Positions 24,001 through 30,000 of a stretch of DNA of 32,904 nucleotides are shown here, one piece after another. Made by a program: the position numbers. This stretch comes from a candidate division WOR-3 bacterium (GTDB taxonomy: Bacteria > Hydrothermota > Tepidihabitantia > SM23-42 > JAOAFX01). The stretch is taken from NCBI GenBank assembly GCA_039802265.1, contig JBDRWI010000023.1, positions 1-32,904 on the forward strand, in the 5' to 3' direction. Each line of letters starts with the position of its first letter. Position 1 is the first letter of the stretch.

Positions 24001-27000
24001 GCCATCCTCACCAAAGTGAACCTTTACTGCAACCAGTGAACCTTTATCCACGATATTCATACCCCCCGAGACTTCAACTAATCTCTCCAGCATCTTCAGG
24101 TAATTTTCTTTTTGTTTCTTTCTCAGATCCAAGAAATAAATTCCTGCCATATATTTTAATGTAATGATATTTACTTTAAATAAAAAATCAAGAGGGAAAT
24201 TTAACATTCGGATTTATTTTTTAATCTTGACTTTTAGACTTTTTTTGTTAAAATTTGTTTATATACAATGAACGAAAAATATATTTCTGACTTTGAAAAT
24301 TTCCTGATTGCCCGCGGTCAGGAGTTAAATACCATACAGTCTTACTGCTATGACCTGAAACAACTTGCCTTATTCCTCGGTGAAAATAATAGAGATTTCA
24401 TAAGTGCTGACGAGGTTGACCTGCGCAATTTTATTCATCGCCTCTTTGACCTCGGTTTGAGGCCGACTTCCATAAATAGAAAAATTTCTTCAATCCGGGC
24501 ATTCTATACCTATCTATTTCAGACCGGCGCGATTAAAAAAAATCCGGCTGTGGAACTTGAATTTTCAAAGGCGGGTAGAAGATTACCCGACACTCTCTCA
24601 GTTGAGGAAGTTATAACAATTATTGAATCGGCGGATGATAAAACCCCGCTTGGACTCCGCGACCGTGTTGGCCTTGAACTTCTTTACGGCGCTGGATTGC
24701 GTATTTCGGAATTACTGAATTTAAAACTGAACGACATACATCTTGACCAGGGTTTATTGAGTGTAACCGGCAAGGGGAATAAACAACGCCTCATTCCCTT
24801 CGGAAAAAAGGCGGGTCAGGCAATTGAGGAGTATCTTTATTATGGAAGACCAAAACTTTTGAAAAATAAACCTTCAGCATTACTTATTCTTAATTGCCGG
24901 GGCAAGAAACTTTCAAGGATGGGATTTTTGAAAATTTTGAAAACTTATAAAATTAAAGCGGGCATCAAAAAACGTATCACCCCCCACACATTTCGTCATT
25001 CCTTTGCCACCCATCTGCTTGAGGGGGGCGCTGATTTGCGCGCTGTTCAGGAATTGCTAGGCCATGCCAGTATCACAACCACCCAGATATATACTCATAT
25101 TGACCGTGAATATCTGAAGGAAGTTCATCGCCAGTTTCACCCGAGAGAAAGGTATAGCCAAAGATCGTAAATTGACGCTGATAATCCGCCACTATTGATT
25201 TAAAGATTTGATTTTTTGTTGGCTATTGACCAACAAAAAATTTTTTGTATAATCGTCTATGAATTACTATATCTTGGTTATTAACCCTGGTGCAGGTTCA
25301 ACCAGGATTGCAGTCTACAAAAATGAAAGACCGATTCTTGAAGAGAATATCAGACATAGTTCTGATGAATTGCTCAAATTCCCTAAAATAATTGATCAAT
25401 ACCAGTGGCGTAAGGAGAAGATTCTTGACTCACTAAATAACAAAAATTTTGATTTAAAGACACTGAGCGCGGTGGTCGGAAGGGGTGGACCATTCAAACC
25501 CCTTAAAAGTGGAACTTATCTTGTCAATGAAAGGTTAATTACAGATATAAAAAGGGGGAATTATCAATCCGAACATCCTTCCCTTTTAGGGGCAATGATT
25601 GCCAAAGAAATTGCCGATTCATTAAAAATCAATGCCTATTTTGTTGACCCGGTATCAGTGGATGAATTCTGGGAATTATCCAGATTCTCGGGTCTAAAAG
25701 AGATTCAGAGGAAGGCATTGAGCCACGCCTTAAATGTGCGAATGGTCGCTAAAAAGACCGCCAAGAAACTACAAAAACCCTATAACAGGTGTTCTTTTAT
25801 CATCGTCCATCTTGGTACAGGAATAACCGTGGCAGCCCATTTGAAGGGCAAACAGATTGATTCATCAAATGCCAATGAGGATGGGCCATTTTCACCCCAG
25901 AGAACCGGTTCATTGCCCACCATACCCCTGGTTGAATTATGCTTCAGTGGAAAATACAAGGAGTCTGAAATAAAAAAGAAATTGCTCCGGGAAGGTGGAT
26001 TGCTGTCATATCTGGGGACAGACGATATAGCGGAGGTTGAAAAGCGGATTGATTCGGGTGACAAATATGCAGAACTCGTCTATAACGCCCTAATCTATCA
26101 AATAGCCAAGGAAGTTGGTGCTTATGCGGTTGTCTTGAAGGGGAAGATTGATGCCATAATCATCACCGGTGGCATTGCCCATTCTAAGAAGTTTGTCAAT
26201 AGATTAAAGTCCTGGATTAAATTTCTCTGTCCTAAATTTTTTGTATATCCTGGTGAAGGTGAGATGGAGGCACTCGCCCTGGGCGTCCTGCGTGTCCTTA
26301 AGGGAGAGGAAGAACCATTAGAGTACAATTAAAGAAAATGTAAAATCACCAGCAAAAATTTTGCACTCTTGACATTTGCAAAAAGGGGAATATAATTTAC
26401 AATGAAAAGGGGGTAAAATGAAATTCAAAAAACTCCTACCCTTAAGTCTCCTTATTCTTCTCTTGTCAACCCCGGGCTTTGCTGCCCAGAGGGTGGTAGT
26501 TTGTGAGGAACTCTATCAGGAAGACTGAGGTGGCTGCACCATTGCCAGTGGGACACTGGCACAGATTGCCATAAACTATCCGGGCAGGGTCGCAGCAATA
26601 GAGATGCATATTGATAATCAATTTCCTCTATACAATGCTGAGGCGCGCCAGAGAATGTACTTTTATCCACCCCCACATTGGTATAATGGTTCTTGGATAT
26701 ATGCAACCCCTTGGCTCTGGATCGATGGCACTAAAAAAGGCCGCACCACTTACACAAATTGGCAAGATTCTATAGTTGCCAGGATGAACCGTCCTTCACC
26801 TTTTTTCTGCACAATGTGGGGAATATATAATCAGGGGACAGGAAATGGAACAGTCTATGCAAAATTCAAGAGCGATACTACCGCAACGGTTACTGGACGT
26901 GTCCGTTTTGTTCTGACCGAGGATAGTTTATATTACTTAGGACCAAATGGTGATGGATGGCACAACCATGTGGCAAGGGATTATCTACCGGATACAGGTG

Positions 27001-30000
27001 GAACAGCAGTAACTATTGCACCCGGTGATTCTGTAATTGTTAGCAGGAATTTCACGGTTCAAGCAGGCTGGAATGCAAACCGGTGTGAAATCGTTGCCTG
27101 GATACAAGACATAGTTTTGCGACCAGATACTACAATTGAAATCTGGCAGGGTGGAATGATTAAAGTTACAGATTTGACTGCGGTCGAAGAAGATATTTCA
27201 CAAAAACCAGTGATACTCGCAATCTCACCCATTCCCAATCCCTGTGTGGACCAAACCAGATTTATCTTCACGCTTAATAAAGGTGAATCATATACCATTT
27301 CATTCTTTGATGTGAGTGGGCGAAAGATTCGTGAGATAAAAGGATATGCATCAGGAGATAAACAGATAATAGAATGGGATTTGAAAAATCAAACAGGTCA
27401 AAGGGTCAATTCTGGGGTTTATCTTTACCACTTTGAGAGTAACACAACCAATACATCAGGGAAAATTGTAGTTAGATAAAATAAGAGTCATAACTATGTC
27501 TAAGGCGCGGCACTTAAATCGCCGCGCCTTTTTTAATTTGCTTCTGATTTGGGTAAGATTAATTAAAAATTCACCTTGACAAAGGAGAAATTTATGGATA
27601 TAATTATAATAGTTACTGGGAAATTTAAAAATTACTGTGCAAGACTTAAGTCATATTCTGTATGGCGTTTATATAAATACGACAATGAGGAATAGGGTAT
27701 CGACTATTTTTAGCCAAATGATAATGCCTTTGTCCAAAGAATTATCAAGGAGCACTAACTCCTTGATAGAAGATGATGAATAAGAAAGGAGGTGATATAA
27801 AGAGCAAATAAGAGCAATTGAAATAGCTGGGAAAGTTATAGCACTAAAAGAAAGGAGGCAATATGCAAATCTTACTAATAACTTATCTGTTCTGGACAGT
27901 GGACCCTTATCTGATTTCCCAAAAAAGTGGAACATTTACACCACCGTATCTGCAGGAATATAACTACATCTCAATTGCCGGATACCTTTTCAACCCCAGA
28001 GAAAAACTCCCGGAGATTCCGCCAGAATTAACAGGTGCTTCTGACTATTGCCTTATCCATTTAAAAGGTCCTGTATACGAGGGAATGAAGCAAACAATAG
28101 AATCTTATGGTGTTAAACTGATTCAATATGTTCCCTTCAACGCATTCATTGCCAGGGCTGATGCATATAAAAGGGAAATAATTGCCGCTCTGCCTTTTGT
28201 GAATTGGGTTGGCAATTATGAGCCAGCATATAAACTTAGCACATCTCTTAAAGAGCATAGCAATGCCACCAAATTCAATGTTCAGATATTCTATGATGAA
28301 GACGAATATGCAGTGCGGAAGCAATTACAACAAATGGGCTGTGAAATTGTAGAGGTCGCTGTTGACCCCTATGTCAAGATTATTGTCCTTGAAACCAGGA
28401 TTGAAAATTTACCAAATATTGCCCGGCTCTCAGAGGTAATGCATATTGAACCCTGGTTGGAGCCAAAGCTTGTCAATCAGAACGCCCAGTGGGTAACCCA
28501 GACCTGGAAGCAGACCTATCGCCGGATATGGAACAAGGGCTTGATGGGACAGGGTCAGGTCGTAAATACCGCCGATAGTGGAATCCTGACAAGTCACAAT
28601 ATGTTTCGGGACCCCGCAGTTCCGATTAATAATTGGGGTAATTATCCAACGCACCGCAAGATAATTGCCTATCTACAACCAAGCGGTTCTTCCTCTGTCT
28701 TTGGTGACAATGCCGCAAACAGTTGGCATGGCACTCATACCGCAGGTACCATCTGCGGCGACGATTCTTATGTCTCAGGAATAAGTCCAAATGATGGTAT
28801 GGCACTTCAGTCAAAGATGTTCTTTATGGACATCGGAACCGCAAGTGGACTTTCGGTTCCCGCTACATTGAGTAATCTATATCAGCCCCCCTACAACGGA
28901 AATGCTGGTGGTGCAGCACGGGTCTCTTCCCATTCCTGGGGCAATACCAATTCTTGGGGTGATTATAACTCCTATGCCAGCCAGACCGACCAATTTATGT
29001 GGAACAATCGGGACTTTGTGATCTGTTATGCAGCGGGCAATGATAGCACCCTTGGTGTCTTATCACCGGGAACATCAAAGAATGTTATCACCGTTGGCTC
29101 AGTCAGGAATGGCTTTGATGCAATATATGTCTCAAGTTTCTCAGGTCGTGGTCCCTGCGATGACAACCGCTTAAAACCCACGGTGACAGCACCAGGGGAA
29201 TTTCTTTGGTCTTCCGCTGGTTCCGCAAACACCTTTTATTTAGGAATGGCAGGAACAAGTATGGCGACCCCCTGCGTGGGTGGTGATGCAGCACTGGTAA
29301 GGCAATACTTTGCAAAGGGATTCTATCCTACCGGCGACTCAACACCCGCAAATCAGTGGTCATTCATACCCGCATCCTTAGTCAAGGCAATGATTATCAA
29401 CAGTGCCCATCCCCAACTAAGCGGTTTGACAATCCCGGATAATAATACGGGCTGGGGCAGGGTCTGTCTTGATGATGCCTTGTACTTTAACGGTGATGTT
29501 CGTAAACTATGGGTTACCTATGATAGTGTCGCTACCGGACAGTATGATGAGTTCACCATTTCGGTTAATAATCAGTCTGAACCATTGAGGATAACTGTGG
29601 TCTGGACTGACTATTACGGTTCATCCGGACAGAATCCAGCAATAGTAAATAATCTTGATTTGACGGTAACGAGTCCGAGCGCAACCACCTATTTGGGTAA
29701 TGTCTTCAGTGGCGGACAATCAGTACCTGGTGGCACTGCTGATAACCGGAATGTTGAAGAGTGTGTGATTCGGAATGTACCGGAAATGGGGAACTGGACG
29801 ATTAGAGTAACCGGCACCAATGTACCTCAGGGCACAAATCAACCGTATGCCGTTGTCGTCTCAGGAGGGCTCGGTTCAACATCAACCGCGGCACTCCATT
29901 TCACGGGTCATCATATCTATGACCCTCCGCCAGCTAATTGGAATGGTAGATGCGACCAGGGAGAAACAGTCTATCTTACTGATACCCTGAAGAATCTCTC

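Follow-up and report, generated by a model that had tools for sequence, protein, structure and literature searches.

HBP35, the 35-kDa hemin-binding protein of Porphyromonas gingivalis (PDB 5y1a), is the best structural match of the Omp28-like selenoproteins described here. HBP35 is reported to have Cys-dependent insulin-reducing activity, to require its tail for surface export, to bind hemin and, in earlier work cited there, to complement an E. coli dsbA mutant (PMC2907840). Among selenoproteins, the nearest described family is the Omp28-related NF045500, which is the hypothetical protein GOS_C (PMC2398784; equated in Table 1 of PMC13188914); the available part of the GOS_C account mentions neither a signal peptide nor a T9SS tail. 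As the first-pass annotation had acknowledged, the Omp28 family was known beforehand, and so were Omp28-like UxxC selenoproteins, in the form of GOS_C and NF045500. The leading members of the bacterial selenoproteomes catalogued are the enzymes Fdh, SelD, Grd, Prd, hydrogenase and Hdr, and the CBM-like, VPS10-like, propeller and FG-GAP families of WOR-3 have no entry in Table 1, as far as the accessible portion of that source goes (PMC13188914).

We analyzed a 32,904-nucleotide window, contig C23 of a candidate division WOR-3 genome bin (G000), in which the gene at 26418..27479 encodes a 353-residue HBP35-like selenoprotein of the short subfamily; this gene and all of its parts lie on the forward strand. 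The read-through protein contains one TGA (26526), a leader, the motif U37-G-G-C40, an Omp28 domain (PF11551, E 1.6e-13) with a thioredoxin-like and an Ig-like half, and a T9SS tail. Upstream are a putative sigma-70-type promoter-like site (TTGACA-16-TATAAT, 26369..26396), proposed from a sequence match at 12 of 12 consensus positions, and a ribosome-binding site, AAGGGGG (26407..26413), preceding the ATG at 26418. The signal-peptide-like leader (26418..26483), recognized by a hydropathy heuristic and from homologues, has three lysines within residues 1–6, a hydrophobic core and small residues preceding AQRVV. The thioredoxin-like half of the Omp28 domain (26484..26786; model pLDDT 94) carries the residues U/C37, C40, H64 and P98, invariant in alignment A1, with P98 placed by the alignment and the predicted model in a cis-Pro-like loop preceding a strand. 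The Sec codon (TGA, 26526–26528) begins the U-G-G-C motif that opens helix 1 (26526..26537), as indicated by the sequence, the profile search and the model. A SECIS hairpin of 8 bp, TGCCAGTG[GGA]CACTGGCA (26543..26561), begins 17 nt past the T of the TGA and is supported by folding and covariation. The Ig-like β-sandwich half (26802..27164) is defined by the model and PDB matches to 2r2c and 5y1a, and the T9SS type A sorting domain (27234..27476; C-terminus KIVVR) scores 36.8 bits on TIGR04183 against a cut-off of 23. A terminator-like hairpin, AAGGCGCGGC...GCCGCGCCTT, with a T run behind it (27502..27534), was read off the sequence; it is unlisted by the terminator scan, probably because its loop is over the limit of the scan. 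The gene looks monocistronic. The window also holds genes for secreted-type peptidases.

HBP35 was the best Foldseek match of the predicted model (TM 0.77, E 1.3e-11) and the second-best match in a profile search of the PDB (E 9.4e-5), while a single-domain phmmer search of the PDB returned weak thioredoxin matches only. The two proteins share a signal peptide, a thioredoxin motif, the Omp28-type fold and a C-terminal export domain, but HBP35 has CxxC in place of UxxC, identity is 17%, and the WOR-3 bacteria hold up to nine paralogues per genome in three subfamilies; a likeness in thioredoxin activity or hemin binding would be a prediction from the fold. An Omp28-domain profile search of the bin matched exactly four genes, on contigs C23, C28, C87 and C18, the same four that the first-pass annotation had read through UGA into Omp28-like UxxC proteins (UGGC, UADC at C28:15477, UPYC and UGFC, respectively). 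Its assignment of three T9SS tails and one lipoprotein-like signal also holds: the C23, C28 and C87 proteins are over the TIGR04183 cut-off, and the tail-less C18 protein has a hydrophobic leader and then a Cys at residue 15 by the hydropathy heuristic. The hairpin said to be common to two genes is GCCAGTG-GGA-CACTGGC in C23 and C28. The gene limits were revised, with probable starts at C87:2018, not 2129, and at C18:818.

On PF11551 (cut-off 34.9 bits), C23 (51.3) and C87 (66.8) are above and C28 (28.3) below, with C18 unmatched; profile A1, which itself includes the other three genes as well as C23, matches all four at E ≤ 2.7e-52. The UxxC motif within a thioredoxin-like fold (alignment, model and Foldseek) and a weak Omp28-type similarity (34–59 bits) are shared with NF045500/GOS_C, yet the four genes lie far under its 200-bit cut-off. 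The annotated scores stand for the C23/C28/C87 set (41.8, 34.0 and 59.2 bits), while C18 gave no match at E ≤ 0.01. Since Cys homologues score alike (33–81 bits in 26 of 29), a special kinship with GOS_C cannot be read from the score. For NF033782, the Omp28 outer membrane lipoprotein family (cut-off 150 bits), the Omp28-like genes reach 21.4 to 60.3 bits only, and this is the sole family match of C18 in that search (E ≤ 0.01). C18 resembles this family in being tail-less, lipoprotein-like and adjacent to TlpA and DUF6029, and differs in its score of 21.4 bits and in the replacement of the first Cys by Sec.

The machinery for Sec insertion is complete in the bin, with tRNA-Sec, SelA and SelB together on C13 and SelD on C5; these would insert Sec at a UGA specified by a SECIS inside the coding region. 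A hairpin with an apical-loop G lies just 3′ of the UGA in all four Omp28 genes, and all nine selenoprotein genes of the bin have a G-loop hairpin at ≤ −4.9 kcal/mol; among ordinary TGA-ended genes, 31 of 440 have one at ≤ −4.5. Conservation of the UGA in relatives, a gap left by the first-pass annotation, is now documented: 122 of the 150 Omp28 matches listed, across the order, contain one TGA, and the five read among the 28 listed without a TGA all have Cys at the site. The Sec codon occupies the Cys-aligned position in 38 of 40 genomes, and CxxC is found in 82 of 148 database representatives. The hairpin is present at 69/69 Omp28 Sec sites versus 2/5 Cys sites, and its stem covaries synonymously (AGT/ACA 28, AGC/ACG 15, discordant 4; concordant 43/47). 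A search across the phylum was positive in 88 of 151 genomes; a pattern scan of species genomes gave only four loci and no range outside WOR-3. A FastTree tree is biased against Sec members because these, truncated in databases, drop out. Databases do annotate the genes as truncated: none of 115 homologues covers more than 93% of the query region, and they are therefore too short to reach the UGA. This would suit TGAs that are true stops, in split or decayed genes, or an altered genetic code, readings that we regard as extremely improbable given the same codon at the Cys-aligned site in 38/40 genomes, the covarying hairpin, the leader encoded 5′ of the TGA, the full set of Sec genes and the frequent use of TGA as a terminal stop (278 of 829 long ORFs of the bin, which makes it a normal stop there). 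The sequence comparisons thus show the C23, C28, C87 and C18 genes to be real selenoprotein genes, with HBP35/Omp28-fold thioredoxin-like products and predicted export signals.

Two genome-wide TGA scans of the bin (92,425 TGAs, 977 coding-like candidates) gave the same nine selenoproteins and no convincing tenth; the earlier count of eight exported-type proteins among nine is right for the assembled DNA. A candidate at C16+24573 was rejected, having no hairpin, and C47+3743, C96+5481 and gene-junction TGAs were dropped. T9SS tails are found on seven of the nine selenoproteins and on 202 of ~1,699 coding-like ORFs; the tail of the C95 selenoprotein scores 19.6 on TIGR04183, below the cut-off of 23. 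In the single-contig relative G027, 18 of the 21 selenoproteins found are of exported type. Sequence comparison therefore shows most selenoproteins, in the bin and beyond, to be of predicted exported type, and relatives also keep the cytoplasmic SelD and usually two Sec-HdrA subunits. Consecutive selenoprotein genes, five in G027, G025 and G018 and four in G007, recall the operons Sao, Tso and frhA-frhD-hdrA (PMC13188914), but here all members have an export signal and no Sao or Tso family was matched.

The T9SS cargo features, a signal peptide and a type A C-terminal domain, are present in the C23, C28 and C87 proteins, with leaders assigned by hydropathy only. SprA is over cut-off and the PorV family present in 5/5 genomes including the bin, and PorU is found in 4/4 relatives and absent from the bin assembly; a search for the PorM/GldM motor, run without a positive control, gave 0/5. 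For the three tailed proteins, passage through the inner membrane would depend on the signal peptide, and a SprA/PorV/PorU-type system would take them through the outer one. Their placement at the cell surface is predicted from signal and tail.

The first-pass annotation had further proposed that this lineage keeps the Sec machinery for a surface redox layer and not for Fdh, Hdr or Grd. The first half stands, since most Sec is in exported-type proteins, and no Fdh-alpha is over cut-off in 40 genomes; the part concerning Hdr does not. HdrA (NF040770) is over cut-off in 23 of 40 genomes, each with a TGA. At 15/15 distinct sites fetched, including the same-genus G001, this TGA supplies the U of a canonical CxxU, and the accompanying hairpin has a GGUC or GGGC loop. 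As lineage claims, both SelD as sole cytoplasmic selenoprotein and the absence of Sec from Hdr fail. HdrA rows of ~650 aa marked with one TGA were excluded from the Sec count because the copies read in G025 and G027 carry Cys in the motif. The relatives share CxxU and a SECIS with the Sec-HdrA listed in Table 1 of PMC13188914, but the gene is absent from the bin assembly, and the partners MvhD and NiFe large subunit lack TGA here: an internal TGA occurs in none of the 150 listed among 193 MvhD matches (TAA in two rows), nor in NiFe large subunit, thioredoxin, Thioredoxin_3 or DsrE matches (five genomes each). A GrdB search without a positive control gave 0/5 genomes.

The bin itself has one Hdr-like gene, which has no TGA. 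That gene, the lack of anything close to Sec-HdrA genes in the assembly (top matches 29–34% identical) and an HdrA2-like gene without an internal stop in G001 would fit an organism that has lost the Sec-HdrA cluster kept by relatives, leaving SelD truly its only cytoplasmic selenoprotein. We consider such a loss decidedly unlikely, because Sec-HdrA is present in G001 and the last base of contig C30 lies inside a 969-aa gene that in G004 and G007 sits <~5 kb from Sec-HdrA2; C30 thus breaks beside the locus. The first-pass annotation had cautioned that an 89% complete bin could miss cytoplasmic selenoproteins. The bin is also without PorU and its UvrB-like neighbour, molybdopterin Fe4S4 (present in 39/39 others), CcdA, DUF6029, Thioredoxin_3 and DsrE. 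Four runs containing the window, compared by their contigs with the G007 Hdr cluster, carry a near-identical copy of that locus; they also have a second HdrA-like piece, of 415 bases with 72 differences and at depth 14, which is not assignable to the bin. The Sec-HdrA locus is most likely missing through an assembly gap, and the lineage claim of no core-metabolism selenium enzyme is most likely an artefact of it. A true loss would touch the count only and is compatible with the mechanism proposed below.

At the head of a conserved operon stands the C18 lipoprotein; its partners there are TlpA, a DUF6029 barrel in which a Cys pair is invariant, and a NapH-like protein (E 1.2e-13, under cut-off). 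DUF6029 occurs in 37/40 genomes; TlpA adjoins it in 30/30 examined, with the Omp28 lipoprotein alongside in 26, and in the other 4/30 no lipoprotein adjoins TlpA. The operon lipoprotein has UxxC in 21/21 cases with the motif in view. Contig C18 stops 34 codons into the operon TlpA, and PorU, CcdA, TlpA and DUF6029 were not found in the bin assembly; a CcdA-type protein is present in 4/4 relatives. The window gene lies outside this operon. Bacteroidota may have a similar operon. The accessible text of PMC7712824 describes no Omp28 operon. In the predicted model of DUF6029, C475 and C480 sit between the final two strands of the barrel, probably on an outside loop, although the pair could be structural; a polysaccharide-export role has been suggested for DUF6029-like barrels (PMC9603273).

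We propose that the three tailed Omp28 selenoproteins work beyond the cytoplasm as fast thiol-disulfide reductases, in which Sec would attack and the second Cys resolve, opening disulfides of protein substrates and holding many secreted enzymes reduced. The C18-headed operon may be their electron source, the weakest step of the scheme: electrons would enter through the NapH-like membrane ferredoxin (or CcdA) and reach TlpA (WCKMC) in the periplasm; TlpA would pass them on to the Sec lipoprotein and the DUF6029 Cys pair, and the tailed, HBP35-like surface thioredoxins would receive them last. Against this explanation stand the possibly structural nature of the barrel's Cys pair, the polysaccharide-export role suggested for such barrels, the dsbA complementation by HBP35, the four genomes with no lipoprotein beside TlpA, the genes missing from the bin assembly and the position of the window gene outside the operon. 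Taken whole, with exported-type Sec proteins, T9SS export, a reductase role and this relay, the explanation seems to us a reasonably probable one.

Two other functions were weighed. The complementation of a dsbA mutant by HBP35 points toward oxidation (earlier work cited in PMC2907840), and the 202 tailed ORFs, together with highly variable xx positions in UxxC, as if no single partner were read, could suit an oxidase or isomerase role in the periplasm, where these selenoproteins would fold the ~200 T9SS cargo proteins during their transit. A T9SS tail would take such a foldase out of the periplasm, and Cys is barely richer in tailed proteins (1.3%) than in others (1.1%). The operon partner, moreover, is a ResA/TlpA-type protein, and these are of the reducing type; we judge this function unlikely. 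Exported Sec might instead bind or mobilize a surface ligand, such as heme, soft metals, polysulfide or selenium itself, and not serve as a general disulfide reductase. Hemin binding by HBP35 (PMC2907840) agrees with this, as do the CU, GU and CUxC loops of other exported families on β-propeller or CBM-like rather than thioredoxin folds, the adjacency of selD to the long Omp28 form in many relatives and, in G015 and G016, the presence next to selD of a gene for a YeeE/YedE-type transporter. But the resolving Cys and the thioredoxin Pro loop are retained in the four Omp28 proteins, and both the long form and the lipoprotein form have Cys versions that occur alongside. We judge ligand handling unlikely as well.

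Beyond the reductase explanation, we tentatively raise the possibility of a trans-envelope selenium redox system of the WOR-3 order, in which electrons would travel across both membranes by way of a NapH-like protein, TlpA, a Sec lipoprotein and a DUF6029 barrel gated by Cys, and so reach ~10–20 selenoproteins at the surface, with five or more folds among them, and with Sec gained separately in three Omp28 subfamilies; such separate gains would imply selection for selenium on a compartment and not on one enzyme. No publication on an export-dominated selenoproteome was found in a search limited to main texts; BSepDB, deep-Sep and GOS could contain WOR-3 entries. Absence claims drawn from an 89% complete bin are a trap, having proved wrong for Hdr. 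Because gene callers remove both the signal peptide and the active site of these proteins, counts of WOR-3 secretomes and of selenium demand come out too low. A lineage in which some 85% of the selenoproteins found bear export signals offers a natural test of the reasons for using Sec, as paralogues that share a fold but differ in having Sec or Cys coexist in the same genomes, beyond the reach of the cytoplasm's reducing buffer.

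The selenoprotein gene at 26418–27479 encodes 353 residues when the TGA at 26526 is decoded as selenocysteine (Sec), and its product is composed of a leader, a U37-G-G-C40 motif, an Omp28 domain (PF11551, E 1.6e-13) and a type A T9SS tail (36.8 bits, cut-off 23). The standard-code ORF begins at 26604 and lacks both leader and UxxC motif. A promoter-like site (12/12 consensus match) is positioned upstream and a terminator-like hairpin sequence downstream. In the Omp28 domain model (pLDDT 94), UxxC opens helix 1 and the invariant proline precedes a strand, the same placing as in thioredoxins, and the top structural match is HBP35 from Porphyromonas gingivalis (TM 0.77, E 1.3e-11). 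Named homologues belong to candidate division WOR-3; all 115 database homologues span at most 93% of the region and thus stop short of the UGA. The locus was rearranged, since in relatives this gene has other neighbors (homologues from contigs C4 and C69 of the window's own bin, G000). A XerC/D-type recombinase gene and a butyrate-kinase-like gene lie upstream (24268–26332), the stretch 7177–13277 has genes for TamB-like and Omp85 proteins and, after them, a C25 peptidase-like gene, and the window also contains three tailed proteins plus M1, C1 and S8 peptidases.

An Omp28-domain profile search of G000 returned exactly four matches, this gene (C23) and paralogues on contigs C28, C87 and C18, and all four are genuine selenoprotein genes, with UGA read-through in C23 and, as the first-pass annotation had claimed, in the other three. 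Conservation of the UGA, left unsearched in that annotation, was checked across the order: the profile matches 179 places in 38 of 40 genomes, and one TGA is present in 122 of the 150 matches listed and none in 28, with Cys at the site in all five TGA-less copies read. A G-loop hairpin of −4.5 kcal/mol or below is found at 69/69 distinct Sec sites versus 2/5 Cys sites and 31/440 ordinary TGA-ended genes, and two paired synonymous stem positions covary (AGT/ACA 28, AGC/ACG 15, discordant 4, among related rather than independent sequences). G000 encodes tRNA-Sec, SelA and SelB on contig C13 and a Sec-containing SelD on C5; as 278 of 829 long ORFs terminate with TGA, the genetic code is standard. 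Phylum-wide, the profile matches 88 of 151 genomes, with TGA copies in further families too.

On an unrooted FastTree tree of 196 Omp28 domains (Sec column masked, database rows biased to Cys), the Sec forms fall in three subfamilies with Cys clades between: short (C23, C28), long (C87) and lipoprotein (C18). Four Sec/Cys changes are required, three of them forced by strong branches, and each subfamily has its own, different hairpin; the one previously reported as common to two genes is the SECIS of the short subfamily, C23 and C28. Separate Sec gains would be the simplest reading of these sequences. The C18 gene (L033:1-856) is 93.8% identical in DNA to its G007 counterpart (L198:3078-3931), versus about 71–80% for other shared genes, which may reflect recent transfer or mis-binning; sequencing runs containing window DNA also contain G007-like DNA. 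A second operon, which combines a long Omp28 gene with genes for a tailed protein of 245 aa and an Omp28 lipoprotein of the Cys type, is observed at L196:2551-5871 (G007), L073:7778-11102 (G015) and L065:6143-11431 (G034), all-Cys in most, with Sec long forms in G034 and adjoining selD in G015 and G034; it was not found in G000.

Omp28-like UxxC selenoproteins are already known as GOS_C (PMC2398784), and GOS_C corresponds to NF045500 in Table 1 of PMC13188914. The low NF045500 scores noted earlier stood for three paralogues (41.8, 34.0 and 59.2 bits), whereas C18 had no match. The UxxC motif is common to GOS_C and these proteins, but the latter score under the cut-off, with Cys homologues alike in score, and they are filed in neither the GOS_C nor the HBP35 family. 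The gene family is known in kind. Within the papers available, literature searches found none pairing a selenoprotein with Omp28, nothing relevant on WOR-3 and selenocysteine and, among the works listed, nothing on T9SS selenoproteins; term searches of BSepDB (PMC13326102) and deep-Sep (PMC12013277) gave no Omp or secretion passage.

Two genome scans yielded an identical nine selenoproteins in G000, bearing out the earlier count of eight exported. All eight have a hydrophobic leader (short and uncharged in C95), and seven have T9SS tails (C95 scoring below cut-off) versus 202 of about 1,699 coding-like ORFs. The four exported selenoproteins outside the Omp28 group are conserved as well: TGA is present in 76/79 rows of the CBM-like family (the other three being fragments), 48/50 of the VPS10-like family and all 88 best rows of 150 listed for the propeller family (322 in all). 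The single-contig genome G027 has 18 exported-type selenoproteins (6 Omp28, 2 CBM-like, 2 VPS10-like, 7 propeller and 1 FG-GAP) among 21 found, the others being SelD and two HdrA; this count is not unbiased, as the search for exported families started from those of G000 and relied on homology, the cytoplasmic side was covered with ten known families, and for most propeller copies the number comes from the match table rather than from the sequences. From sequence, the export bias is real across the order.

Propeller Sec genes are strongly expanded (6–7 TGA copies in three single-contig genomes among G018, G019, G025 and G027), as are VPS10-like genes (8 in G018). A further exported type, an FG-GAP propeller with a G-U-C motif and T9SS tail, lies near selD at L199:16522-17760 (G027) and L191:10997-12229 (G016), with no match in G000, and a sixth has a redoxin/AhpC-type domain, W-U-P-L-C and a T9SS tail (L180:2663-4177, G025). 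Two G000 candidates are probably broken genes: a long secreted-type gene on C16 (20673–24779) interrupted by TGA, with coding-like sequence beyond and no hairpin, and a short repeat fragment with in-frame TGA on C96 near 5481. SprA and PorV-family genes are present in G000, the latter with 15 matches, and its 2.3 Mb encode about 200 T9SS-tailed ORFs; PorU exceeds its cut-off in 4/4 relatives and not in G000, and GldM gave no match in a search run without positive control. In WOR-3 the motor of the T9SS may have diverged or be absent.

The strict claim, with SelD as the sole cytoplasmic member and no Sec for Hdr, does not hold for the lineage: HdrA (NF040770) exceeds its cut-off in 23/40 genomes, each with TGA. 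The codon supplies the Sec of a canonical CxxU, with two such paralogues each in G002, G007, G025 and G027 and one in same-genus G001 (among matches listed), and SECIS elements accompany 15/15 distinct sites. G000 has one HdrA match versus 3 to 28 in 38 others. True loss of Sec-HdrA is quite improbable, and the claim is most likely an artifact of a gapped bin. Contig C30 breaks off in the last 44 codons of a gene for a 969-aa protein, which in G004 and G007 is no more than about 5 kb from Sec-HdrA2; molybdopterin Fe4S4, present in 39/39 other genomes, is absent from G000, as are PorU's UvrB-like neighbor, CcdA, DUF6029, Thioredoxin_3 and DsrE. An Omp28 selenoprotein gene lies immediately downstream of Sec-HdrA2 in G004 (L067, G004:C3) and about 11 kb away in G002 (L077, G002:C41).

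The absence of Sec from Fdh was upheld: the Fdh-alpha cut-off is reached in none of the 40 genomes, 0/24 rows contain a stop, and the Fdh-like protein of G001 has Cys at the site. TGA was found in none of 150 MvhD rows listed of 193, nor in NiFe large subunit, thioredoxin, Thioredoxin_3 or DsrE matches (five genomes each); the one AhpC-type row with TGA (of 23) is itself a tailed protein. GrdB was found in 0/5 genomes, without positive control, and it is reported in a WOR-3 MAG from Lost City (10.1101/2022.01.25.477282), so the phylum is heterogeneous.

Sec-SelD is fused to a ferredoxin:thioredoxin reductase beta-chain domain (PF02943) at L190:3162-4520 (G039) and L073:11631-12932 (G015), and SelD frames of 438–495 aa in about ten relatives may carry the same fusion; a separate FTR-like gene adjoins selD in G016. 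Two Sec-containing selD genes each occur in G002, G015, G016 and G018, one adjoined by a YeeE/YedE-type transporter gene in G015 and G016. In several relatives the neighbors of selD and selAB include methyltransferase, corrinoid protein, URO-D-like and HGD-D/activator genes (L199:3779-10348 in G027, L070, L071, L191, L192), possibly a methylated-selenium salvage route.

Sec genes form arrays in relatives, five consecutive genes in G027, G025 and G018 and four in G007. Such an array often closes with a C18-type lipoprotein, and next come TlpA (WCKMC, leader present), DUF6029 and a NapH-like 4Fe-4S protein. DUF6029 is present in 37/40 genomes; in 30 examined its neighbors include TlpA (30/30) and the lipoprotein (26/30), which has UxxC in 21/21 cases with the motif in view. 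Contig C18 stops 34 codons into the operon TlpA. DUF6029 is modeled as a large beta-barrel (pLDDT 78) with an invariant C-x4-C close to its end, and the Foldseek matches shown are outer-membrane barrels (TM 0.33–0.53).

This arrangement suggests a relay in which reductant would leave the inner membrane, be handed by TlpA to the Sec lipoprotein and finally reach the tailed selenoproteins, which by analogy may act like HBP35, a protein that reduces insulin via its two Cys and reaches the surface via its tail (PMC2907840). Their likely tasks would be to open disulfides in proteins used as food and to keep secreted enzymes in the reduced state; the window has S8, C25, M1 and C1 peptidase genes. 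The same exported proteins could instead serve oxidative folding, which we consider improbable, or ligand capture, which is unlikely but marginally less so. That Sec is used across a whole compartment, together with the arrays and the proposed relay operon, would be surprising to specialists and can be tested.
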